Virus record (IMG/VR): IMGVR_UViG_3300030117_001886
Coordinates: 1-64,000 of that record
Direction: 5' to 3' (one strand)
Source: a virus
DNA length: 64,000 bases
This document shows positions 3 through 45,719 of this stretch, in pieces. Numbering within the stretch: the first letter of the stretch is position 1; every line of letters begins with the position of its first letter. The position numbers and the translations under genes are program-made. The notes below the pieces were generated by a model. That model had not been told where the DNA came from. It worked only from the letters and a program-made list of their open reading frames with translations, and made no database searches.

Positions 3-3000
3 AAAGAGGCTGATAATATTATAGGAGGCATAGAGTTAGACTATAGGGATAACAACAGCGGCCTAAAAGGTGAGAAGATTACTAGACAGAAAGCACTAAA
101 TTTACTAAAGAAACTTTTACCAGACATGTTTGATAAGAGTGGTAAAATTATACCAAGCATGCTTTCTATGTTAAACTTTGCAGAGATGGAAAGAATGACT
201 GGTAGGACAGATGTTCTTGGTAGATTCTCAAAAGGAGTTATATTCTTACTGGAAGATAAGACAGGCGTATATGAGAATGTAGTACGTCACGAAGCATTAC
301 ATAAAGTAATATGGAACTATCTTACGCCTGCAGAACGTACAGCCTTATACAAGGCAGCTAGACAAAGATATAAAATGCCTGAAGGCATATTCAGTAATAA
401 AGAGGTAGAAGAGAAATTAGCTGATGAGTTTATGACTTACAGGCAAAAGCCTGAATCATTCAAGGATGCTATAGGTAGATTCTTCAAGAAGCTTCTTAAA
501 CTATTTGGGTTCTATCAAAAGAATGTAAACAATATAGATGCATTCTTTGCTAATGTAGAAAGCGGATACTTCTCTGGTAAAATGTATACACCAACAGATG
601 TAACAGGACTTAACTATATAGATATAGAAAAAACATTTGGGACTGTTCAGGTGTACAGAGACTCGTCTAAGATATTTAAAAGTCTTATGGCGAATAACAT
701 GGACACAAATAACAAGAAGGCTGCTATAGACAAAGAGTCTAAGAAAGTTTTGCGTCCGCCAGTAAGTAGAGATGAGGCTCTTAGAATGACAGCTCAGCAA
801 GTTTTAAATAATCTTGCAAAGATGGAGCAGATAGCTAACCCTACTGTAGATCAGAAGAGACTTATAGCGGCAACTAGAAAACTTTCACAAGAGAAAGTAC
901 TAAGAACATTATTTAAAGAATACTACGAGAGAGACTATAAGTCCTTAGGGGTTGACCTTGAGATAGAAGAAGATGTAGATGCAGTAAACTTAAAAGAGAT
1001 TATTGAAAGAGCTTTTGAAAAGGACCACAGTCTTAGTCTATCAGAAGAGGTTGTTGACTTTTTATCTGGTTTAACTTATCAGCAAAAAGGTACAGATACT
1101 ATCAATCGTATAAATATAAAACACGGCTATTTTATCTTATTACAATTATTTGCTGGATTAGATTCTAGCCTTGGTTTCAATGGTATGCAGGAGGAACTTC
1201 TTAAGAGAGGTAACAAACTAGGATTTAAACCTGGTACTGCAGGCCAGGCCGTGTTGAATAAACTAACAGATCCTAAACAAGGAATTTTAGTCCAAGGTTT
1301 AGTAGATAGATTGCCGGGTAGAAAAACTATACCTGGTAATGCTAGATTTATATCGGACAGCCTATTCATATTTGCAGAGGATAAAGGTAGAGATATATAC
1401 AATATCAACTCTGATATTGATCTAAATCCTGAAGGAATAAAAAGAGTAGTAAGGAAGAAAGACGAACTGTCTGAAGATTTCTTCTACAGAGTGTGGGAGG
1501 CTATGCAGGAGAATGGACAAGAGTTAAACTCTAACCAGCTTAAAGCGCTGTATGTAAAAGAGACATCACTCAAGACGCTTAAGAATATCTTTGTAAATGC
1601 TGCTAACCTAAGAAAAGAAAACTTTAAGATAGGTGAGTACGGTTTTGAGGGGGAAAGAAAAACTGTATCGTATTATACGCATAGATCATTTGGCACAGAC
1701 GCAGTACAAAGGTCCTCTGTAAAAGATGGTATGACAACTAATGCCAAGAGACTTGTAGGAAACATACCTGGTATTGTACAAAAATTAAAAGCAGGTAAGG
1801 TAGAGGATGGAGTTATACAGTTCTTAGATGTTATAGGATATGATAGATCTCTTATATCTCTAGACTTTAGAAATGAAGCTGAGCTTAAGCAGAAGCTTAT
1901 AAACATGCTAGAAGAGGTTAAGAACAATTATAACAAAGATGTAAACGTTTTATCTGAAACAGAGTTTGATTCTAATAACAAGCCGGTAGTAACTGGTAAG
2001 AGAAAGATTACTATGGAGGAGATAGTAGACAATGAAAGAAGTACTATCAATCTATTAGGGGGAGCATTACAGTTTATAGGGCAGGGACAGAAGCCACAGT
2101 CAATTAGAAATGCTGACGGTAAAAATATATACATATATCATAATAGTTCGTTTGGTGTAGACGCAATACTATCTCTACGCCCTAGCGTTAAGAAAAAAGA
2201 CAGAAAAGAATACTTACAAGAGGGTAGTCCTGCATACGAATCAACTTATCAATACAACATCTTTGCCAATGGTGATAGTAGAATATACAATATATCAGAT
2301 CACGATGCCATAATATCTTCATCAGGATTTGGTAGAGCTAAAGTATACAGAAGAGAAGAGGAGGCTAACTGGTCAGATAGAATATTTAACTATATGTTCT
2401 TAGCAGATATGTCTGCTATAGATAAAGGTAAAGGCATCTACAAGTACTCACAGCAGATACACACTGTAGCAGATGCGCCTACACTAAAAGCAGCTGAAGT
2501 TAGATTCTTAATGCCTGATCAACAAGATGCAGCTATTAGAAATATTATAAGACAATACAAATCTAAGCCTAAGAAAGGTAGTCCTACCGCATTTACTAGT
2601 ATACTAGAATCTAATATGAGTGAGTCTCAAAAGCTAGCTGCTATAAAGAAAGAGTTTAAGGACAGAGCTAAGAAGTTTGAGCAGGATTTAAAAGATAATA
2701 ATGTAAACTATAACACAAATGCCATGGATGGCATGATCAAAGTTCTACAGGACAATGGTGTTATAGCTAAGTTTGAAGGTGATGAGGTACAAAGAGAGGA
2801 GCAAAAAGAAAAAGCTAGATCTCAAGTTATAGAGCAGTTTGTAGCTAATTATGCAATTAATGGATTTTTCTTAAATCAGATTGTATTAGGAGATGAGGCA
2901 CAGTTTGGTAACTCATTTAAAGTAATTAAGCGTACTAAGATTGCATTTGCACCTGGATATAAAGGGTTTGTGAATGACAAGTATGGAATGCAGAAAGAGT

Positions 3001-6000
3001 TTAGAGTTATAGTTGCTAATGATCCAGTAGCTTCTCCATTTGATTACATGAGTGATAAAGAGAAAGCTGAGCTCCGTGATGATATGAAGGCTATAATGGG
3101 TACAGAGTTTGAGAACTTTGACATGGCAGATGCACAAGGGTTTATCCTACCCGAGCGTTTAGCTGACATACGTCGTGGTTTTGGTGGAGGTATAAAAATT
3201 AGTACTGTACTAAAACCTGTATACTTTGGTGTTGATAAGGACGGCCAAACGCATGCACTTAAGTATTCTGCAGTTGTATTAAGTGATGATTTAGTATCTA
3301 AACACCCAAAGCTTGAACAACTTAGAGCTGCAATGCGCGCTATAAAAGCAGATGAATATGTATTTAAAACCGCCAACAAGGTAGGTGGCCCTAAGACTCT
3401 TGCAGGAAATGGCTATGCAAATAATAAAGTAACTGTAGATGGTAAGTTTAATGAAGAGCTTAACTTTACAGAAGACAATGTTGTAGTACTAGACAACAAG
3501 AACTATAGAATACAGCTAGATCCAAAAGCTGCGTTAGATAAGGTAGTATCTAATCCTACACAGCTAGCGTATTTTATTGACTCAAATGGTTTGAACTTTG
3601 ATGCTGCATTGGAGTACTATCAGTTAATGGCTGATGAGTTTGGTATGGGGCTAGAAGACTTCTTAAGATCCGTAGACTCATTGTCAAGTAATAAAAAGAA
3701 TGCAATAGAATCTCCTGAAAAGTCTCGTATAAATAACATGCGTCACAGAGCTAGACAGATGGCTAAAGAGTCGGCTAGTAAACTTGCATCCTCTCAGAAG
3801 GAAGCCGAGGTTCTTAGTACAAAAGCTAAAGTTGTAGAGCAAGACAAGGATGGTAATAATATAGAAAGAGAAAGGTTTGCAATTGATATAAACTTCCCAG
3901 GTGTTGCGCAAAAGGTGTTCTCTCTAATGTTGTCTAAGTTAAAGAGTCACACTGTAAAAGTTAAGTTCCCGGGTTACAAAATGGTGTTACAATCATCATA
4001 CGGTATAGATGTGTACGAAGAGAATGGCGTAGCTAGAACAAAAGATCAAATAGAAAACTTTGATGAGAAGCTTGCTAACGGCACTATAAAGGAAAGACCT
4101 CTAAAACACATAACAGCTGATAAACCTTATGTAGAAGTACTTATGCCTTCTATACATCAAGATAGATTTCAGATAGGTGACACCATACTTAATGAAAACA
4201 TGATGGGCTTCCGTATACCATCTACAGAGCTACACTCTGCGGTTGCAATAAAGGTTGTAGGTTTTTACGATGCATTCCAAACTAATGTACTAGTTGCACC
4301 TAAAGAGCTCACACCGCTGCATGGTAGTGACTTTGACGTCGACTCATTATTTGTTATACGTAAAGCTACAATGTTTGATAACAAGAACGGTAAGAAGTTG
4401 TATGCAAACACTGAGAGAGGATTAGAGTATGATGGAGAATTAATACTAAGCATGGCTGACTCTTTAGATGTAGCCTTTTTAGACTTAGTGCAAGAAAGAT
4501 ACGATAAAGCTAGTGATAGATTTAGTGAGTTAATGGTAATGCAAAGACAGGAACTAGCAAAAGAAAGTCCTGTAAAAGAAGCGCTTGATGCCATTAAGGA
4601 TGAGATGTCTGCTATAAATAAATTTAGAGATATGGCAAGAGTTGCTATGAGCGCTATGCGTAAAAATAGAATGCTTGACATTTATCTAGAAGTTATAGAA
4701 GCTAAGAAGAACAGAGCTTCAATGCTTACGCCTATTGACATGAATAACTTTAAGGGTGTAAATAGAAAGGGCTCACCATCTGTGTTTGATGCTCTTAGCC
4801 AGGCTCTTGGCGTAGAGATACAAGATGGGCATGAGCAGTTATATAGAGACATAGACTTAACTGATCCTCTTGGAGAGAGATATATGCATCAAAGTAACAG
4901 ACAAGGCGCTATCCTTACAGGTGTATTTGCAAATGCAATGAAAGTTCTTATCTATGCTAGAAAAGGTAAAGAAGTACAAGGTAATAAAGAAGAGTCTAAA
5001 GTATTCTACGGATCGGGTGATAATATATTATCGTATGAAATAGATGGAACAAACTATGCAGAGCTAGCTATTAATGCAAGAGGTAAAGATATTAATGGTG
5101 AGATTGCAGATGAGTATGTATATGGTACACTTGACTCTGCAGTGAACGCTTCTATTGATAATGCTAATGAGCAGATACTAAATATAATTAATCTAAATGG
5201 AGATACCTCAGCTATATTTACAGTAATGACTAGTCAAGGTGTACCTCTAAACAAGGTTGCATTCTTTATAAACCAGCCTATTATACGAGCTGCTTCTAAA
5301 AGTCTAGGATTTAGAATGACTAACAAACTGACTAAGATGGAAGAGATTGTAGCAAATAAGCTAGGACTTAACATGGATCAGCTGCAGGAAAGATTAAACA
5401 GTGTAGAGATTACCACAGAAGCTCTTAGGGATGGCGTTCGTAGATCTGACATACTAGAAGATAAAAGTTTAGATGACATGCTTGGATCTTCAGCCAAAGA
5501 AATACTATTCCAATTAAAAGTAGCACAGCTTGCTAAGCAGATACTTAAGTATGATGACACTCTTAGAGATATGAGTAAAGCACTGAGTGTGTTACAATCT
5601 ATGCCATCTTCACTAGCTGAGTTTGAAGATATAAAACAAGCAGTTGCTAAAATTGTTACTAGAAATGAGGACGGCGAGCTAGAGTTTAACAGTAATTTTG
5701 GAATGCAAATTCCTGATATAACTAAAAACTTAGCACACTTTAGAGCTGCTATGGAAGTAGTAGAAGCGTTTGATGTGTACTCTGAAAATGCATTCCACAT
5801 TGCGCACCCAGAAATGAAAGCTTTTGCAGCTGAAATAGGTAAGCAGTTTACTACAGACAAGGAAGAAAAAGAAACTGCAAACGAAAAGAATGTAAAGATA
5901 CGTACTGAGTTTATCAAGTACATAGCATCTGGTATGCCGCAGTTTACTACGATTAATGAGCCTCTATATACATACAAAGGTACATTTGGTGAAATACAGT

Positions 6001-29553: not shown

Positions 29554-29934
29554 TTAAGCCCTAGAAATGATGTTACGCATTTTTCCGTTAATCACTTTTG
29601 CTTCAACTTCTACTTGTTGATTGGTTAAACTGATACCTTGTAGAATATCGTTTTCCCATTCTTCAAGATTCAATGTTCCCTCTTGTATTAAAGTTTTATC
29701 TCCAAAGTTTACATTGAATTTACCTAAGTTTAGAATAAATTCTCCTTTGTCTGTTTTAACACAGATAGTTTTAAAAGGTCGTACTCCACCTACCAAAGTA
29801 GCATTGTATGTTCCCTCGTCTAGTTTTGATTCACTAGAACCTCCAGCAATTACTGAAGCGTTTGGATTTAGTTCTTGCATTTGCATAGCTTTTTTGTAAG
29901 CTACCATTTCTGCTGTTTCTGTTAATGTTGCCAT
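29554..29934 (-). CDS. Hypothetical protein, first gene of the leftward (early) block
   Basis: 126-aa beta-rich ORF with an AT-rich leader and its own terminator. Confidence 0.75.
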   Translation of the reverse strand: MATLTETAEMVAYKKAMQMQELNPNASVIAGGSSESKLDEGTYNATLVGGVRPFKTICVKTDKGEFILNLGKFNVNFGDKTLIQEGTLNLEEWENDILQGISLTNQQVEVEAKVINGKMRNIISRA

Positions 29935-29972
29935 AACGATTTAATAAATTAAGTTAATAAAATTTGTGTGTA

Positions 29973-30006
29973 CTTGGGCAAAATGGGGTGTACCCCATGC
30001 ACCAAG
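29973..30006. other. GC-rich hairpin at the divergence point of the early and late blocks
   Basis: CTTGG..ATGGGGT-GT-ACCCCAT..CCAAG. Confidence 0.55.
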
Positions 30007-30083
30007 ACCCACAGGGGCTACATTATGGGGAGGTCTGCGCACTCAAAAATTTTCCAAAAATTTTTTTTATTTTATTTTTTATA

Positions 30084-30091
30084 TATATTTG
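30084..30091 (+). promoter_or_regulatory. -7 promoter element (TATATTTG) starting the late block
   Basis: TATATTTGCAC after a long T-tract. Confidence 0.6.
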
Positions 30092-30140
30092 CACATGACC
30101 TTCAAAGAAATATTGAGAAACTGTAAACGAAAATTAATAG

Positions 30141-30275
30141 ATGGCGACAAGAAATACATTTACAAGAGTAGACACACCGAAGAAAAAAAGACCAGGGATA
30201 CATGCAAAAAGCAAAACAAGTAAGCTTACAAGTTCTAAGAACTACCGCAAAAAGTACAAAGGTCAAGGAAGATAA
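30141..30275 (+). CDS. 44-aa highly basic protein ending KKYKGQGR
   Basis: Hand-translated MATRNTFTRVDTPKKKRPGIHAKSKTSKLTSSKNYRKKYKGQGR; the terminal YxGQGR motif is recurrent in small phage proteins. Confidence 0.7.
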   Translation: MATRNTFTRVDTPKKKRPGIHAKSKTSKLTSSKNYRKKYKGQGR

Positions 30276-30287
30276 GAATAATTTGTG

Positions 30288-30295
30288 TATATTTG
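30288..30295 (+). promoter_or_regulatory. -7 promoter element upstream of the structured region
   Basis: TATATTTGCAC. Confidence 0.6.
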
Positions 30296-30299
30296 CACA

Positions 30300-30645
30300 A
30301 GCAGAGGCATTCCTTAATAGGAATATCACCCCTGAGGACCGAAAGGGCAGTAGGGGGTCAGACGTGGGATTTATACCTAGTAACATAATAGTAATATGGC
30401 CCTAGGCAAATACGCTAGAAAAAACGCTGTGACAGCGAATCATCAGTAGGAAATTTTCTCCCATAGCCTCGAAAAGGAAAGATATAGAACCTAGTTGGGA
30501 TAGAATACATATTAGGTAAGTGTGGTGAATTAACACCGTGATAATTATCCCTTGGTCTTCTCAAAGAAGAAAGCACTGCTAGGTTTGAAATTCTAACCAT
30601 AATTACAAAACTCCTAGGGGGAACCTATATCTAGACTGCACATAT
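30300..30645 (+). ncRNA. Candidate large structured non-coding RNA or long structured leader
   Basis: No credible ORF; many local hairpins and several long-range complementary segments (see findings). Confidence 0.5.
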
Positions 30646-30655
30646 AATTATAATT

Positions 30656-30871
30656 ATGGGAAAATCAAAACCAAATAATCCTAGCTTGTGGTCACGAGCA
30701 AAAGCTGCGGCCAGAAAGAAGTTTAAGGTGTATCCATCTGCATATGCTAATGCGTGGGCATCTAAATGGTACAAATCAAAAGGTGGCACATGGCGAGGAG
30801 CTGACAATAGAGTAAAGAAATCTATGAAAGGTGGATTTACTATGGAGAAAGGACCTGCTAAATTAGACTAA
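30656..30871 (+). CDS. Small basic phage protein
   Basis: LWSRAKAAARKKFKVYPSAYANAWASKWYKSKGGTW, a recurring phage family. Confidence 0.8.
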   Translation: MGKSKPNNPSLWSRAKAAARKKFKVYPSAYANAWASKWYKSKGGTWRGADNRVKKSMKGGFTMEKGPAKLD

Positions 30872-30873
30872 TC

Positions 30874-31143
30874 ATGGCAAAAGGCGGATTAGGTAAATGG
30901 TTTGGTGAGAAATGGGTAGACGTAAAGACAGGTAAACCTTGTGGTAGATCTGGTAAGAAAGATAAACGTCGTGGATACCCGGCATGTAGACCATCAAAAG
31001 TAGCAGGTAGTATATCTAAAAGAGAAGCAGCTAAGAAAACAGGACCAGGAAGAGTAAACTGGTCAACCACTGCATCTGGTAGAAAGCGTAAAACAAGCAG
31101 AGCTATGCAGGGTGGATATAAGACTTTACCAAAACTTTATTAA
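30874..31143 (+). CDS. Small basic protein (DUF5872-like)
   Basis: GGLGKWFGEKWVDVKTGKPCGRS...YPACRP. Confidence 0.78.
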   Translation: MAKGGLGKWFGEKWVDVKTGKPCGRSGKKDKRRGYPACRPSKVAGSISKREAAKKTGPGRVNWSTTASGRKRKTSRAMQGGYKTLPKLY

Positions 31144-31174
31144 TTTTTTCTTGGAACTATAAATTATTTTGTTA

Positions 31175-31182
31175 TAACTTTG
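31175..31182 (+). promoter_or_regulatory. -7 promoter element upstream of groES
   Basis: TAACTTTGCA, with TTG about 21 nt upstream. Confidence 0.55.
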
Positions 31183-31198
31183 CATTATTAAATTTAAA

Positions 31199-31486
31199 AT
31201 GATGGCAAAGAAAACAGAATTTAGACCGTACGGTAACTGGTTAGTTCTACCAGACCCTACTACAACAGAAACAGAATCAGGGTTAATCTTAGATGACTCA
31301 ACTGCAAAGAAGATGGCAACTAATGTACTAGAAGTATTAGCTGCAGGTCCTCAATGCATCATGGCAGAGGTAGGAGACACAGTTCTTGTGAATCCTTTAT
31401 CAGAAGCTATGCGTATGAGTATTAATGATAAGCCTTGTGTATTAATTAATGAGCATAATATATTAGGGAAGTTTGATAAGAACTAA
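31199..31486 (+). CDS. groES: GroES/Cpn10-like co-chaperonin
   Basis: FRPYGNWLV, TESGLIL, VLAAGP, VGDTV and NEHNILG. Confidence 0.85.
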   Translation: MMAKKTEFRPYGNWLVLPDPTTTETESGLILDDSTAKKMATNVLEVLAAGPQCIMAEVGDTVLVNPLSEAMRMSINDKPCVLINEHNILGKFDKN

Positions 31487-31655
31487 ATTTTTAACTCACG
31501 AATTTGATGAGCTCTTTGAATTATACAGAGAGTTTGAAGATAAACTTACTATGTGGTCAGAAAACAACATAAACTCTACATGGGATATAGAGGTACTTAT
31601 AGGAGAATACGAATATATAATTATAGTAACTGTAGACAATGAAAATAACGATTAA
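31473..31655 (+). CDS. Hypothetical acidic protein
   Basis: 60-aa ORF with a TTG start that fills the gap. Confidence 0.5.
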   Translation: MIRTKFLTHEFDELFELYREFEDKLTMWSENNINSTWDIEVLIGEYEYIIIVTVDNENND

Positions 31656-31995
31656 CGCAGATACAACTACAAAACAGATAAGCATTTGGAATGGTATATT
31701 TGATCTAACTAAAAAAGAGATACAAGTTATATCTAATCTTATAGATGCAGAAGCCGTAACTAGAACAGGTAATATAGCAGATGTAAAAAACAAAAGAGCA
31801 GCTGCTAGAAATATGGGTATATCTGATTACAATACTTTAAATAACTATATAAAAAGATTGAAAGATAAAAAAGCCTTGATAGTTAAAAATAATAATTATA
31901 CCTTACATCCACTATTAAATGCAGATACTACATATGTTGAGATACTTATCAAAAACGGAGGAGATAAAACCAATAATAACCCTATGGACGAATGA
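31639..31995 (+). CDS. Putative winged-helix DNA-binding protein
   Basis: LTKKEIQV...AARNMGISDYNTLNNYIKRLKDKKAL. Confidence 0.65.
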   Translation: MKITINADTTTKQISIWNGIFDLTKKEIQVISNLIDAEAVTRTGNIADVKNKRAAARNMGISDYNTLNNYIKRLKDKKALIVKNNNYTLHPLLNADTTYVEILIKNGGDKTNNNPMDE

Positions 31996-32060
31996 GTATA
32001 ATGTAGATTTTGACATAGTTCAAGATCCACATGGTATATGCTTAGAAATAACAGTAAACG

Positions 32061-32402
32061 ATGGAAGACAACAAACTACCTACTGCATTACAGATGATGA
32101 AGAACTTCAGCAAGGAGCTCGTTACTTTTGTGCAGAAGGGAATGCCTAATGTAAGTGAAGAAGATTATCAAGAAAGATTAGACGATTGTTTTAATTGTGA
32201 GCATTTTCTAGAAAACTTAAATAGGTGTGGTAAGTGTGGCTGTTTGGTTGAATATAAAGCTAGATGGAAAACAACTAAATGTCCTATAGGTGTTTGGAAA
32301 CAACAGATAGTTGGAGAGGGTGGTACATCCCTTGAAGGCAAGATTAAACGCAATGAAGAAAACAAAGAAGGAGATAATACAGAGACTAGCGACAAAGTAT
32401 AA
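32061..32402 (+). CDS. Cys-rich zinc-binding protein (DUF6171-like)
   Basis: ERLDDCFNCEH...RCGKCGC...KCPIGVW. Confidence 0.7.
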   Translation: MEDNKLPTALQMMKNFSKELVTFVQKGMPNVSEEDYQERLDDCFNCEHFLENLNRCGKCGCLVEYKARWKTTKCPIGVWKQQIVGEGGTSLEGKIKRNEENKEGDNTETSDKV

Positions 32403-32583
32403 TTTACCTCTTAGTACAATAGAGAATATAGTTATGCACCAGTTTAAATTTGTGGCTAAGATTATGGAAGAGGGCAAGTTTGAATCTATAAGAATACCAT
32501 ACTTTGGAAAGTTTTCTTCAAACAAGAAACGACGAGATTATATAACTGCATTAAAAAATGGATCTAATAACGATAGACAATAA
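32353..32583 (+). CDS. HU/IHF-like DNA-binding protein
   Basis: MKKTKKEIIQRLA...IRIPYFGKF; start moved to the ATG at 32353. Confidence 0.7.
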   Translation: MKKTKKEIIQRLATKYNLPLSTIENIVMHQFKFVAKIMEEGKFESIRIPYFGKFSSNKKRRDYITALKNGSNNDRQ

Positions 32584-33100
32584 CGTAGCTATACCTAATG
32601 CATATACTCTTACAGTAGAAGCATTCAAAGCTATAGTAGATAGAGATAAGACTGCAAATAAGAAAAAAGCAACTCAAGAGCTAGCCTATGTCTATTTTAA
32701 ATGTGATCACCGATCTCCTTTTGCAGTATATGGAGAAGAAGAAAGGGGATCTGAAGTCAAACTAAATGTATTTGGTTTGGATAGCAAGTGGGAAGAAGAT
32801 GAAAAAGTAAAAGCCGCTTGCGATAAGTACAGAGAGTTAAACGAGACCTCAGCAGTTAGGCTACTGAAGTCTGCTAGAAACTCTGTGCTTAAATTACAGA
32901 AATATTTTGATACCGTAGATTTAACAATGATGGATGATAATGGTAGACCAATATTTCACGCAAAAGATCTAGTAGCCAACTTATCCAAGATGGGGGATGT
33001 AGTAGATGGCTTATCAAAACTAGAAGAACAAGTAAAGAAAGAAGAACAAGCTAACAATCCTAACAGAGGTGGGGTTGTAGTTAACAAATATAGTTCGTAG
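32558..33100 (+). CDS. Conserved crAss-like protein, putative terminase small subunit
   Basis: Helical 180-aa protein with DRDKT..K..A..ELAYVYF..D.RSPF and a terminal RGG, two genes upstream of terL. Confidence 0.55.
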   Translation: MDLITIDNNVAIPNAYTLTVEAFKAIVDRDKTANKKKATQELAYVYFKCDHRSPFAVYGEEERGSEVKLNVFGLDSKWEEDEKVKAACDKYRELNETSAVRLLKSARNSVLKLQKYFDTVDLTMMDDNGRPIFHAKDLVANLSKMGDVVDGLSKLEEQVKKEEQANNPNRGGVVVNKYSS

Positions 33101-33109
33101 ATTTGAAGT

Positions 33110-33364
33110 ATGGATTTTCTAAAAGACATAGAGGACTATCATACTGCAATGCAAAATGCTTATCTATTTGTTACAAAAAAGATAACAGTAGATGATGTCT
33201 ACAGCGATTTGGAATCTGGGGAAGTTACAGAATTTTATTTACCATTTGATCCATTAGTAAATGATGGAAGAGATATTGGTACTCTAGATTTACTCATTGA
33301 GCATTTTACAGAACTAGAAGAGTATGAAAAATGTCAGGAGTTAGTAAAAATAAAAGATTTATAG
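33110..33364 (+). CDS. Hypothetical protein (C-terminal UVR-like EEYEKCQEL)
   Basis: 84 aa; TAGATTTG promoter element at 33098-33105. Confidence 0.65.
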   Translation: MDFLKDIEDYHTAMQNAYLFVTKKITVDDVYSDLESGEVTEFYLPFDPLVNDGRDIGTLDLLIEHFTELEEYEKCQELVKIKDL

Positions 33365-35319
33365 ATACACATCTATTTAGTCCAGCAGCTAGCCACTTTC
33401 TAGAATATGGCTACTATACAAACGCTTTGCCTGGAACTAAGTCATACTATGATTATTGGGATTTAGAAAAACAAAGATGTCTGTACGGATATGAGGTTGA
33501 TAGTGTAAGCATTACTGGCTTTCACTATTTTTATTTAAACTACTGTCGTATGGAAAGAGCAGTAGAAGAAATACAACCTGATGGCAGCATGTTAAACAGG
33601 CGTGAGAACAGCTTCCCATCTTTCTATGATGGAGATTACGAATACTTTCATGCAGTAGATCAAGCAAGAAAAGAAGATAAACATTTAGCAGTACTAAAAG
33701 CTAGACGTAAAGGATTCTCATACAAGGCTGCAGCTATGTTAGTAAGAAACTATTATTTTCAAAGAGGTAGTAGAGGTTATGTATTTGCTAGTCAGAAAGA
33801 ATATCTGATCGGTGATGGCCTGTTATCAAAGGCCTGGGACATCATATCATTTGTAGATGATAATACAGCATGGACACAACCACGTCTTAGAGACCGTGAG
33901 ATGCACAAACAGTCAGGCTATAAAAAGAATATAAACGGTGCACTAGTTGAGCTTGGTATGAAGGCTCAGATAATAGGCGTATCATTGAAAGACGATCCCG
34001 ACAAGGTTCGTGGTAAGGCGGGTGATCTAGTTTTCTTTGAGGAAGCTGGGTCATTCCCTGGCCTTTTGAAAGCTTGGGAGGTAGCTATGCCAACAATGCG
34101 TCAAGGTAGCAAGACCTTGGGTACAATGATAGCATTTGGTACAGGTGGTGCTGAAGGTTCTGACTTTCATGCATTGGAAGAATTATTCTATAGTCCAGAT
34201 GCATACGATTGTTTAGCGTTTGAGAATATATGGGATGATGGTGCACAGGGTAGTACATGTGGTTACTTTGTACCTATATATCAGAACTTAGAAGGATTTA
34301 TAGATAAGGATGGTAACTCTGATATACAGTCTGCAAAAGCATACGAAATGGATCAAAGGGAGAAGAAAAAATTAGCAGCTGATACAAAAACATTTGATCA
34401 ATATATAGCTGAACATCCTATGAATCCAGGTGAGGCAACTCTACAGATTACAGCAAATCTGTTTGATGTATCATCACTGCAAGCTCAGTATAATACAGTA
34501 AAAGTTAACAACCTGACTTCCAAGGCAATACCAGGAAGACTGCATTATGGTAAGGGGGAGACTATAAAATTTACACCGGACTACACACTAAAACCTATAT
34601 TTAAGTTCCCACATAACAAGACTGATAACAACGCAGGTTGTGTAACTATGTGGGAAGCTCCATATAAAGATAAGAAAGGAGTAGTGCCTCATAATTTATA
34701 TATTATTGGGCATGACCCTTATGGACAAAACAGGTCAGCAGATTCTACATCACTTGGATCTGCATATGTACTTAAGAGAGTAAATAATCTATCACAACCA
34801 GATGATATACTTGTAGCTAGTTATGTAGGTAGACCTGAAACTCAAGATGAATTTAATCGTAACTTATTTATGTTGGCTGATTATTACAATGCCAGGATAG
34901 GATTTGAGAATGATCGTGGTGAAGTTATAGCATACGCAAAACGACATAGAAAGTTACACAGATTGCAGCCAGAGTTTGAAATGCTAGATAAAAAAGAGTT
35001 ACAATCTAGACGTGTAAGACGTAGTTATGGCATGCATATGACCCAAGCTAGAAAGCAGCAAGGTGAGATATATATAAGAGACTGGCTAAATTCAGCACGA
35101 GGGGTTGAAAGTGAAGGCAAAGAATCGTTAAATTTGCATAAGATCTATGACCCAGCACTGTTGCAAGAATTAATTAAATTTAATCATAAAGGTAACTTTG
35201 ACCGAGTTATGTCTCTTATGATAGCAATGTACCATTCCAGAGAGTTGTACAATGCTGAAGTAAAGAATATATATGAAGATAGATCTACGGATGATTTCTT
35301 CAATAGACAAATGTTTTAA
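33331..35319 (+). CDS. terL: Terminase large subunit
   Basis: LKARRKGFSY Walker A variant, FFEEAG Walker B, FGTGG; RNase H-like nuclease GHDPY and GNFDRV. Confidence 0.93.
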   Translation: MSGVSKNKRFIDTHLFSPAASHFLEYGYYTNALPGTKSYYDYWDLEKQRCLYGYEVDSVSITGFHYFYLNYCRMERAVEEIQPDGSMLNRRENSFPSFYDGDYEYFHAVDQARKEDKHLAVLKARRKGFSYKAAAMLVRNYYFQRGSRGYVFASQKEYLIGDGLLSKAWDIISFVDDNTAWTQPRLRDREMHKQSGYKKNINGALVELGMKAQIIGVSLKDDPDKVRGKAGDLVFFEEAGSFPGLLKAWEVAMPTMRQGSKTLGTMIAFGTGGAEGSDFHALEELFYSPDAYDCLAFENIWDDGAQGSTCGYFVPIYQNLEGFIDKDGNSDIQSAKAYEMDQREKKKLAADTKTFDQYIAEHPMNPGEATLQITANLFDVSSLQAQYNTVKVNNLTSKAIPGRLHYGKGETIKFTPDYTLKPIFKFPHNKTDNNAGCVTMWEAPYKDKKGVVPHNLYIIGHDPYGQNRSADSTSLGSAYVLKRVNNLSQPDDILVASYVGRPETQDEFNRNLFMLADYYNARIGFENDRGEVIAYAKRHRKLHRLQPEFEMLDKKELQSRRVRRSYGMHMTQARKQQGEIYIRDWLNSARGVESEGKESLNLHKIYDPALLQELIKFNHKGNFDRVMSLMIAMYHSRELYNAEVKNIYEDRSTDDFFNRQMF

Positions 35320-35322
35320 TAT

Positions 35323-37560
35323 ATGTACGCAGCAAATCATAGTATACCCAAACAAAAACTTGCAGATTCTAAAAAGAATGACAAGTGGGGAAAAGAATGC
35401 GTAGAAGCTTTTATAGGCTTATCAAATACAAATGGATATGGTAACCGCAAGAGTAAACTACAGCAACTGTATGACTATTATAATGGTCACGTAGAGGAAG
35501 AAGATTATAAATACGTAACAAAACCTTACGGTAAAAGCCGTAGTAACTTTCCTTCCAAAATACGTAATTATCCTATTATCAAACCCATCATAGATCTTTT
35601 ATTAGGAGAAAAATCTAAACGACCTCTTAATTACAGTGTTGTAGTTAAAAATGCGGATACCGTGTCTATTAAAGAGGAGGCTAAGAAAGCTACTCTAATG
35701 CAGGTTATGCAACAAAAATTTATCAACCGTCTTAATCAGATGGGAATGCAAACTGGTATGCCCACAGAAGAGGTACAGATGCCAAAGCAAGTAGCAGAAT
35801 TATTTGAAAAGAGTTATGTAGATGCTAGAGCAATCATGGGTCAGCAGGCTGTAAACTATATTATGCAAGAACAAGAGATGTATGATAAGTTTCAGAAAGC
35901 TTGGTTTCATTTCTTAGTATCAGGTGAGTGCTACACACATAGAGGGGTAAGACATAATGAACCATTTTACGAGGTACTAAATCCTGTAGATATTGACTAT
36001 GATAAAGATCCTGACTGTGAGTTTGTGGAAGATGGAGACTGGGCATTGATTCGTAAATATGCACATGCATCTACAATCGTAGATATGTTTAGAGAAGAAC
36101 TTACAGATGCTCAGATAGACAGATTAGAGAGACCTGAAGAGTTTTCTAATGATGCACACTTAAGTCAAGGTTATTCTATGCATAATGTAGAAATGTACAG
36201 AAGCAGACTTATTGAGGTAAATACTGTTTACTGGAAGTCAATGAAACAGGTTGGATTCTTAACATACCCAAATCCTATTACAGGAGAAATGGAAGAGCAG
36301 GTAGTAGAAGGAAAAACAAAACTTACAGATGAACTAAAAGAGGCAGGTGCTAAGATTTCATATGAATGGGTAACAGAAGTGTGGCAAGGTACAAAGATTG
36401 CTGATGATATGTACGTAGATGTTCGTCCAGTAGAAAATCAAAGATTTACACTTGACAACCCATCAAACGGTAAGCTACCAATCAATGGTAGAAAGTATTC
36501 TGAAATAAACTCAGAGAATATATCACTTGTAGGATTAGGTATTCCTTACCAAATAAATTACAATATCTACAAGTACAGATTAGAAATTGCTATTGCAAAA
36601 TCAAAAGATATTATTGCACAGTTTGACATCAACATGATTCCTAAAAAGTGGGACATGGATAAGTTTATGTACTATGTTGATGCAACTGGTATTGCATGGG
36701 TAGACTATAACAAAGAAGGTATGCAGCTGAATCCTCAACATCAAGCTGTAATGGACATGTCTATCAAAACTATAGAACAGTATGTTGTATTACTAGAATC
36801 TATCATACAAGAATGGGAAAGAATCTCAGGAGTAAATAGACAAAGACAGGGTAGTATTGGAACATATGCAGGTAAAGGAACAAGTCAGCAAGCTATTGTA
36901 CAATCTTCACACATTACAGAAGATATGTTCCGTAAATTTGCTAGACTAGAGCAAAGAGATATACAAGCTATTTTAGATTATTCTAAAGATGCTTGGAATG
37001 GTAGTAAGAGTGCAATGTTTTATATGCCTGACGGAACATCTGAGTTCTTTAGCATTGATGGTACTGACTACTCTGAAACTAACTATGGTATATTTGCTAG
37101 TAACTCAGCTTCTGATATTGAGAAGAAAATGAAGGTAGAGCAACTAGCACAAGCTATGATACAGAATGGTACACCAGCATCTATTGTAGCAGAAGCTATA
37201 GATCAAGAAAGCTTTACAGCTATCAAAGATAAGATTAGAGCTGCTGAGAAAGCACAGCAAGAATTGCAACAAGCACAGCAGCAAGCTCAGATGGAGATGC
37301 AAGAAAAACAAATCCAAGCAGCTAATCAACAAAAAGCAATGGAGATGGACAACTCTGAGAAGAACAGACAGACTCAGATTGAAGTTGCACTAATCAATGC
37401 AGAAGCAAATCAAGAACTAAAACGTCAAGAGTTAGAACTTAAAGCTCAAGAGCTAAAAGATAAAGCTGACAATATGGATGACAAGATTAGACTTGAAGAG
37501 AAAAGAATAAATTCACAAGAACGAGTAGCAAAGGATAGCAAACGAAATGCCTCTAAATAA
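35323..37560 (+). CDS. Portal protein
   Basis: 745 aa after terL; YDYYNG, NYPIIKPIIDLLLGE, ISGVNRQRQG and a Gln-rich coiled-coil barrel. Confidence 0.92.
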   Translation: MYAANHSIPKQKLADSKKNDKWGKECVEAFIGLSNTNGYGNRKSKLQQLYDYYNGHVEEEDYKYVTKPYGKSRSNFPSKIRNYPIIKPIIDLLLGEKSKRPLNYSVVVKNADTVSIKEEAKKATLMQVMQQKFINRLNQMGMQTGMPTEEVQMPKQVAELFEKSYVDARAIMGQQAVNYIMQEQEMYDKFQKAWFHFLVSGECYTHRGVRHNEPFYEVLNPVDIDYDKDPDCEFVEDGDWALIRKYAHASTIVDMFREELTDAQIDRLERPEEFSNDAHLSQGYSMHNVEMYRSRLIEVNTVYWKSMKQVGFLTYPNPITGEMEEQVVEGKTKLTDELKEAGAKISYEWVTEVWQGTKIADDMYVDVRPVENQRFTLDNPSNGKLPINGRKYSEINSENISLVGLGIPYQINYNIYKYRLEIAIAKSKDIIAQFDINMIPKKWDMDKFMYYVDATGIAWVDYNKEGMQLNPQHQAVMDMSIKTIEQYVVLLESIIQEWERISGVNRQRQGSIGTYAGKGTSQQAIVQSSHITEDMFRKFARLEQRDIQAILDYSKDAWNGSKSAMFYMPDGTSEFFSIDGTDYSETNYGIFASNSASDIEKKMKVEQLAQAMIQNGTPASIVAEAIDQESFTAIKDKIRAAEKAQQELQQAQQQAQMEMQEKQIQAANQQKAMEMDNSEKNRQTQIEVALINAEANQELKRQELELKAQELKDKADNMDDKIRLEEKRINSQERVAKDSKRNASK

Positions 37561-45165: not shown

Positions 45166-45200
45166 ATTCATCCCCTGAAATATGGGGATGAATTTTTTTT
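45166..45200 (+). terminator. Intrinsic terminator
   Basis: ATTCATCCCC-TGAAATAT-GGGGATGAAT followed by T7. Confidence 0.9.
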
Positions 45201-45209
45201 ATTTAAAAC

Positions 45210-45719
45210 ATGTCACAAAATAATATTTCAGTAACAATAAGTAAAGACTGTGAGGTTATTACATTAAAAGTTTTACCTATAGATCCAGGAGGAGGAGTTT
45301 TAACTTTAACAGGAGCTCACAATGGAGCTGCTTTAAATTTTACACCAAATACTTTTCCAAATCCTATAGCAGGACAAATGATAAGTTTAACATTTACTGC
45401 AGATCAATTGAATAGTGCAGGCTCAGAGCTTTCAGGTATATATATATTTACAGCTCACCAAGGAACTTTTAAAGTTTCAGGAGGTGTAGTAGCAGCTTGT
45501 AGTTTACAGTGTTGTATTGCTAATGAAATAAATGAATACATGGCATGTCCTTGTGATCCAACAAAATCTCCTAAACTAGAAAAAGCTACAAAAGTATTTT
45601 TATTAGCAGAGGGAGCTCAAGCTGATTTATCAGCTACTATACCAAACCCAGATAATGCGATAGCAAAATTTAATAAAGCAGTATCACTGTGTAATTCATC
45701 TTGCGGCTGTGGCTGCTAA
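45210..45719 (+). CDS. Hypothetical structural protein with Cys-rich C-terminus (tail hub-like)
   Basis: CSLQCC, CPC and terminal CNSSCGCGC. Confidence 0.65.
   Translation: MSQNNISVTISKDCEVITLKVLPIDPGGGVLTLTGAHNGAALNFTPNTFPNPIAGQMISLTFTADQLNSAGSELSGIYIFTAHQGTFKVSGGVVAACSLQCCIANEINEYMACPCDPTKSPKLEKATKVFLLAEGAQADLSATIPNPDNAIAKFNKAVSLCNSSCGCGC

Follow-up and report, generated by a model that had tools for sequence, protein, structure and literature searches.

The window analyzed here, a 64-kb stretch of an 80,250-bp IMG/VR record with an estimated completeness of 93%, contains a self-contained, gene-like module that almost certainly encodes a structured RNA, about 275 nt long across its family and about 330 nt long in the window. 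The copy in the window, taken from the first base of helix P1 to the last conserved base of the 3′ tail (30304 to 30633, + strand), is with near certainty a genuine, intricately folded RNA, with at least 12 helices. The family is carried by hundreds of ocean phages and by a few genomic islands of Flavobacteriaceae and is almost certainly uncatalogued. A possible function, to be held tentatively, is that of a cotranscriptional leader with an effect on RNA polymerase, as conAn2 and put have; a stand-alone RNA is about equally likely.

Evidence for a folded RNA

The initial annotation proposed a large folded RNA here, in about 350 nt without a credible open reading frame, and named folding energy and covariation among homologues as checks. 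There is indeed no credible ORF across positions 30296 to 30655 and no conserved ORF before the ATG at 30656. The folding energy of the single sequence is only modest (z = −2.1 for the + strand and −1.4 for the − strand), so that comparative evidence was needed and covariation carries the proof. More than 120 homologues were collected, among them 65 distinct close relatives (alignment A5) and 55 distinct diverse 5′ domains (alignment A7).

Covariation among these homologues is very strong. In the 65 close relatives, a 68-pair model has 95.0% standard pairs, compared to 36 to 45% when the partners were slid, with compensatory changes at 36 of the 68 pairs. This alignment has a covariation score of 0.40, against 0.06 to 0.10 for the slid controls, and Watson-Crick pairs of the model make up nearly all of the column pairs that score highest in mutual information (APC corrected). 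The diverse 5′ domains have 98.5% of cells paired, a value that leans toward the model because A7 was aligned by covariance model and is thus fitted to it, and 20 of 28 pairs are compensatory. The boundaries of conservation in the alignments are sharp. Some G-U pairs vary little or not at all (for example, A5 columns 64/187 and 282/316); read on the other strand they would become C-A mismatches, so the folded strand is the + strand, which is also the strand of the late genes. The proposal of a large folded RNA is therefore supported both by the close relatives and by the diverse 5′ domains.

The modest z score of −2.1 would fit a locus of chance hairpins or an element that works at the DNA level, such as a packaging site, an att site, or an operator array. 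However, the compensatory changes, the G-U pairs specific to the + strand, and the poor pairing of the slid controls all speak against this; covariation that is strand specific excludes a DNA-level element, and the reading as a whole is hardly credible. Two marine metatranscriptome contig sets contained only bits of neighboring or unrelated genes and left the RNA uncovered, which weighs neither way.

Anatomy of the RNA

The RNA is composed of a 5′ domain (P1 to P4), an A-rich linker, a 3′ domain (P5 to P10), and a conserved tail (Table 1). Two covariance models were built, R1 for the 5′ domain and R2 for the 3′ domain, which match the window at 30301 to 30475 with 77 bits and at 30471 to 30635 with 149 bits, respectively. 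R1 matches nearly every complete member of the family at 55 to 82 bits. R2 is strong only in close relatives, and its matches in distant members are weak but adjacent to the 5′ domain. Thus, the 5′ domain is the conserved core. Many unpaired nucleotides, including those of the junctions, are invariant.

Table 1. Features of the RNA locus and the late block in the window
Feature	Position(s)	Strand	Remarks
p44	30141-30275	+	44 aa, very basic; first late gene; own −7 box at 30084-30091
−7 promoter box TATATTTG	30288-30295	+	Bacteroidota TAnnTTTG type; ends 8 nt before P1
Structured RNA, long form	30304-30633	+	~330 nt; alignments A4 and A5, structure counts, covariance model matches
5′ domain (P1-P4)	30304-30470	+	Conserved core of family; covariation
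P1	30304-30308/30466-30470	+	Encloses P2, P3, and P4
P2 (ATTCCT/AGGAAT)	30309-30313/30320-30324	+
P3	30328-30333/30353-30358	+	Conserved asymmetric internal loop
P3a	30339-30340/30345-30346	+	2 bp, GAAA cap
P4	30364-30369/30459-30464	+
Long-form expansion inside P4	30370-30458	+	~85 nt; lineage specific; in 17/65 aligned sequences
Expansion hairpin CCUAG/CUAGG	30376-30380/30402-30406	+	Compensatory changes by eye (A11)
Expansion hairpin CGCUG/CAGCG	30425-30429/30433-30437	+	Compensatory changes by eye (A11)
3′ domain (P5-P10)	30476-30598	+	Faster evolving; covariation
P5	30476-30482/30592-30598	+	Strong covariation
P6 (AACCTAG/CTAGGTT)	30487-30495/30578-30586	+
P7 (GGGATA/TATCCC)	30497-30503/30545-30551	+	Encloses P8 and P9
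P8	30507-30510/30520-30523	+
P9 (GGTG/CACC)	30524-30527/30534-30537	+	Loop AAUUAA
P10	30554-30556/30575-30577	+
P10a (TCTTC/GAAGA)	30558-30560/30569-30571	+
Conserved 3′ tail	30599-30633	+	..AGGGGG..CUAUAUCUA
p71	30656-30871	+	DUF5872 profile positions 1-49
p89	30874-31143	+	DUF5872 profile positions 53-85
groES promoter, −7 box TAACTTTG	31175-31182	+	Separate unit with groES
groES co-chaperonin gene	31199-31486	+	Unit directly follows RNA in most relatives
TerL	33331-35319	+
Intrinsic terminator	45166-45193	+	Strong; 10-bp stem, then T run; within late block
Late block after RNA		+	Order p71/p89, groES, TerL, portal, head, tail; >33 kb total

In most relatives, P4 holds a 17-nt hairpin (P4a) with a stem that shows 2 to 5 standard pair types per position. 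The window and 16 others of the 65 aligned sequences have the long-form expansion in place of this hairpin. RNAalifold gave no useful fold for the insert; inspection of alignment A11 by eye showed that the other long forms keep the CGCTG/CAGCG pair with compensatory changes, so that this hairpin, part of the initial annotation, stands as a feature of a lineage-specific insert.

Six or seven of the helices in the initial annotation are confirmed. The motifs now assigned to P2, P6, P7, P9, and P10a are real by covariation, as is ACCCCT..CC-GAAA-GG..GGGGGT, which corresponds to P3 with P3a; P1, P4, P5, P8, and P10 are additions to that set. Two pairings described as crossing and pseudoknot-like (30391 with 30597 and 30400 with 30613) fail in the 17 insert-bearing sequences, with, for example, 3/14, 1/17, and 3/12 cells paired at some positions, and 30402 to 30406 instead pairs locally, within the insert. 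Closure of the ends by GCAG/CTGC is not conserved either and is paired in only 25 to 43 of 63 to 65 sequences. The proposed pairing of AGATATAG with CTATATCT survives only in part: the first three bases pair with 30592 to 30594 as part of P5, and what is possible is the short UAUA segment, in which positions 30626 to 30629 of the tail may pair with 30483 to 30486 (98.8% paired, with only G-U-compatible changes). Another candidate, a tail pseudoknot UUUUC/GGGAA, was rejected; it has 50 to 65 of 65 cells paired per position, solely via G-U, and no compensatory change.

Promoter and position in the late block

The layout of the window is crAss-like: one giant ORF exceeds 2,300 aa, the genes from 11 to 30 kb form a leftward block, and those from 30 kb to the end, which include the genes for TerL, portal, and major head protein, form a rightward one. 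The closest GenBank matches to TerL are gut crAss-like phages at approximately 42% identity, so the placement in Crassvirales given by the initial annotation holds only at a distance. The RNA locus is the sole strand switch of the window and lies between a leftward gene for a 126-aa protein and the rightward genes. Just 5′ of the p44 promoter, at the strand switch, there is a GC-rich, hairpin-prone island (29973 to 30045), which is partly conserved in one other locus (L001); the short-form homologue L109 has an analogous GGGG/CCCC-rich stretch in the same place.

A promoter element had been noted at 30288, and the −7 box is found there. A TAnnTTTG box lies within 60 nt 5′ of the motif ATCACCC in 72 of 111 distinct upstream regions, compared to 7 of 111 control windows, and in those 72 it is mostly 21 to 29 nt before the motif. 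With the TerL, portal, and major head protein genes downstream, this bears out the earlier view that an RNA with its own promoter heads the late operon. In every TerL-clade locus with mappable neighbors, the RNA is codirectional with and 5′ of groES, five small genes, and the TerL gene.

No terminator-like site was found on the + strand from 30288 to 37000, nor was a terminator found directly 3′ of the RNA in the downstream regions compared. Of 58 distinct downstream regions, 25 have a complete second promoter after the RNA and ahead of groES, so the operon does not depend on the promoter of the RNA. In the other regions, a promoter-less ORF starts 15 to 35 nt after the RNA. This is the case for p71 in the window, which starts 23 nt past the last conserved base with no promoter box seen in between; transcription of p71 and p89 therefore presumably runs through the RNA. 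In the 20 kb scanned, a single clear internal terminator was seen. The next ORF starts only 17 nt after it, at 45210, too close for a promoter to fit, so transcription must pass through this terminator.

Flanking small basic proteins

The initial annotation suggested that the small, very basic proteins encoded on both sides of the RNA could be its RNP partners, and the pattern of co-occurrence does not support this. The p44 family (38 to 50 aa, very basic, motif KRPG[IV]HAKSK.S.L.SSKNY.K.Y.GQG) occurs at no fewer than 374 IMG/VR loci and has no Pfam assignment. Its genes are typically the first of a codirectional block, with ORFs directly after. At 51 of 111 RNA loci, a p44 gene is directly 5′ of the RNA on the same strand, and it is always there when present. 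However, p44 is absent from four near-complete genomes that carry the RNA (with a working positive control), 79 of 80 other p44 loci have no RNA and ORFs follow at once, and the complete genome G160 has p44 without the RNA. Given these counts, an obligate partnership with p44 was rejected; the most fitting view is that p44 normally opens the late block and that its only link to the RNA is one of position. The p71 and p89 genes look like a DUF5872 domain split over two genes, and similar genes are found in cyanophages. As partners they were likewise rejected, since they are found alongside the RNA in only seven loci.

Distribution of the family

A search of TerL-related loci with nhmmer gave about 31 homologous stretches, located about 2.7 kb 5′ of the TerL gene. 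Motif scans retrieved first 87 and then at least 119 IMG/VR stretches, along with at least 119 metagenome contigs, including contigs from TARA, and 4 GTDB MAGs. At least 22 of 24 evaluable TerL-clade genomes carry the RNA. G160 belongs to the same clade; between its p44 and groES genes (L127, 3053 to 4200) there are instead genes for a 102-aa membrane protein and an amidase-like protein. The RNA occurs in three phage types; in the two types other than the TerL clade, it too is located at a strand switch, ahead of the terminase or tail genes.

In chromosomes of Flavobacteriaceae the RNA is sporadic, with 2 of 151 genomes in a sample of the family and 3 of 151 in a sample of the genus, and two MAGs (G001 and G002) have two copies each. 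The bacterial islands that carry it encode integrase-like proteins, xis-like HTH proteins, and type I restriction-modification systems, with a tRNA adjacent in one case. Here, the RNA heads arrays of small genes that include the xis-like genes. In two islands (L246, from a Polaribacter MAG, 2946 to 4709, and L400, 3543 to 5042), the RNA lies between genes for two conserved proteins, neither of which has a Pfam assignment: one of 216 to 229 aa (..NNGYRQRKNT..AELLDYL..) and one of 500 to 590 aa with repeated, zinc-ribbon-like Cys-pair motifs.

As stated in the initial annotation, the RNA cannot be assigned to a family. Among the 4,227 covariance models of Rfam 15, none matched anywhere in the window at gathering level, only noise was found for 29700 to 31000 at E ≤ 10, and there was no match to L109 at E ≤ 10 or to eight distant loci at E ≤ 1. 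BLAST found no homologue of the RNA in GenBank phages, and a literature search found no description of it.

Possible functions

From the arrangement of the locus, we infer that the RNA is transcribed and that it is cotranscribed with the genes downstream, and we tentatively propose a mechanism in which it acts as a leader. This is based on the fixed position at the head of the block, the lack of a terminator after the RNA, the promoter-less ORFs that follow it, and the terminator within the late block that has to be passed. Host RNA polymerase would start at the Bacteroidota-type promoter that ends about 8 nt before P1, and the RNA would be the first transcribed part of a rightward late block of more than 33 kb, with no terminator of its own. 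The nascent RNA would fold and act in cis on the elongating host polymerase, either alone or with a host factor. The polymerase modified in this way would be processive and resistant to terminators along the long operon, as with put (HK022) and conAn2 (pLS20). Where a genome has a second promoter after the RNA, the modification would be confined to transcripts initiated at the RNA's own promoter. Several observations count against such a leader. These include the second promoter itself, which is complete in 25 of the 58 regions, the lack of the RNA from one complete genome of the clade, and the fact that the 20 kb scanned contained just one clear internal terminator. Furthermore, the module passes among unrelated phages and islands, and some bacterial genomes have two copies, which fits a portable accessory gene; no similarity to put, EAR, or conAn2 was seen in its sequence or structure. 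No NusG-like factor or NusG domain was found in the phage genome, which disposes of the idea of a phage NusG as partner.

A stand-alone RNA that works in trans is about as likely as the cis-acting leader. Such an RNA would be abundant, made from its own promoter, and released by processing, and it could serve as an RNP scaffold, as a decoy or sponge for a host factor or defense system, or as a mimic. This reading agrees with the dedicated consensus promoter, with the sharp boundaries of conservation, and with the separate groES promoter that comes right after the RNA in those 25 of 58 regions. A portable module (three phage types plus islands, with two copies in G001 and G002) that is sporadic in bacteria (2/151 and 3/151 genomes) and was lost from G160 is also what it would lead one to expect. 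The many invariant unpaired nucleotides suggest tertiary folding or a binding partner, and phage phi14:2 makes abundant long noncoding RNAs (lncRNAs) from other intergenic regions. However, there is no terminator or recognizable 3′-end signal, the orientation is constant with the RNA always heading a gene block, and no partner protein is consistently linked. Three other readings share most of the remaining probability. In a riboswitch-like sensor, the 5′ domain would bind a metabolite or a signaling ligand and the 3′ domain would set the expression of late or excision genes. The 5′-leader position, the layout of a conserved core and a variable second domain, the invariant junction nucleotides, and the location 5′ of xis-like genes in islands are all reminiscent of such a leader; nevertheless, it is unlikely, as the RNA is followed by a promoter or an ORF start rather than by a terminator/antiterminator or other expression platform, is bypassed by the second promoter in many genomes, and matches no Rfam riboswitch family even at E ≤ 10. 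A ribozyme, for example, one that is self-cleaving or that processes the 5′ end of the late transcript, is a slightly poorer prospect still. In its size, its multihelix junctions, and its strictly conserved unpaired bases, the RNA looks like a typical large ribozyme, and an S-element-like string, AAGAUAUAG, is present, but no Rfam ribozyme model matches (group I introns and RNase P included), there are no flanking exons, and the fold supported by covariation lacks a P3/P7-type pseudoknot such as group I introns have. Lastly, the RNA could be a primer or activator transcript associated with a replication origin, which is expected at the minimum of the cumulative GC skew. That minimum is at approximately 28 to 30 kb, and the RNA lies at the divergent junction, but skew follows gene orientation and is thus not independent evidence for an origin. 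Copies in islands are found at element borders beside xis genes rather than at obvious origins, and neither an AT-rich unwinding element nor iterons were seen in the RNA, which makes an origin transcript improbable.

Some more specific identities were considered and rejected. A group I intron is excluded by the lack of a match to RF00028, by a promoter that abuts P1, by the complete ORFs on both sides, and by the lack of a P3/P7 pseudoknot. Apparent likenesses to RNase P, to tmRNA, to the B12 box of cobalamin riboswitches (GCACUGC), and to the group I S element (AAGAUAUAG) are unsupported by Rfam or by the fold. A template RNA of a retron or DRT-type system was dismissed because the 80-kb genome encodes no reverse transcriptase (no RVT_1 match, with controls working).

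Comparison with known RNAs and significance

The put RNA of HK022 and the EAR RNA are cis-acting antiterminators of about 70 and 120 nt, respectively, that need no protein partner. Like them, the RNA described here is structured, promoter proximal, and at the head of phage or other long operons; unlike them, it is 275 to 330 nt long and has at least 12 helices. conAn2 is the RNA of the bipartite conAn processive antitermination system of pLS20 and other Gram-positive conjugative elements; conAn2 RNAs act in cis, are 260 to 600 nt long, and follow a gene for a small protein at the start of mobile-element operons of more than 32 kb (PMC8191782). The RNA described here shares with them its large size and its place at the very start of a very long codirectional operon on a mobile element. 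Directly before the RNA there is often a gene for a small protein, which in the conAn system is the processivity protein ConAn1 and here, at 51 of 111 loci, is p44. However, no similarity in sequence or structure was seen, conAn is known from plasmids of Firmicutes rather than phages of Bacteroidota, p44 is an inconsistent neighbor whose family occurs mostly without the RNA, and a second promoter often follows the RNA here.

Cellulophaga phage phi14:2, a marine crAss-like phage, produces abundant lncRNAs from its g004-g006 intergenic region, and its late genes are transcribed by the host RNA polymerase (10.1101/2020.03.07.982082). The phi14:2 transcripts are likewise long, noncoding, and highly transcribed. 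They differ in genomic position, and phi14:2 has no match to the 5′-domain model R1. In our data, with spurious ORFs removed, phi14:2 (L401) has a gene-free region of 1.7 kb (2904 to 4602) that corresponds to the reported lncRNAs and is unrelated to the RNA family. GOLLD (RF01998) and ROOL (RF03087) are large, ornate RNAs that are often carried by phages. The new RNA resembles them in being large, highly structured, and phage borne, with many conserved unpaired nucleotides. In contrast to them, it matches neither model, is smaller, is not near tRNA clusters in phages, and has a fixed position at the head of the late block.

Large RNAs with a structure as conserved as this are rare, and those whose function has been solved are mostly ribozymes, riboswitches, or core parts of the expression machinery. 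There is a reasonable, though less than even, prospect that the family is a new class of large functional RNA, common to marine crAss-like phages, other phages of Flavobacteriia, and integrative islands. It would then be either the first processive antiterminator made of RNA to be known from Bacteroidota, or a new kind of ribozyme or an RNA that binds a host factor, passed as a module among mobile elements. For RNA catalogues, it is a new family, for which the alignments and the two covariance models provide a starting point. As the counts from IMG/VR and from metagenomes including TARA show, the RNA is abundant in ocean viromes. In a branch of Crassvirales that is still uncultured, it occupies the point at which late gene expression is controlled, and it is shared with genomic islands of the hosts. 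Its function, once known, would help to explain how a late operon of over 33 kb is expressed by phages whose hosts have unusual promoters and translation signals.
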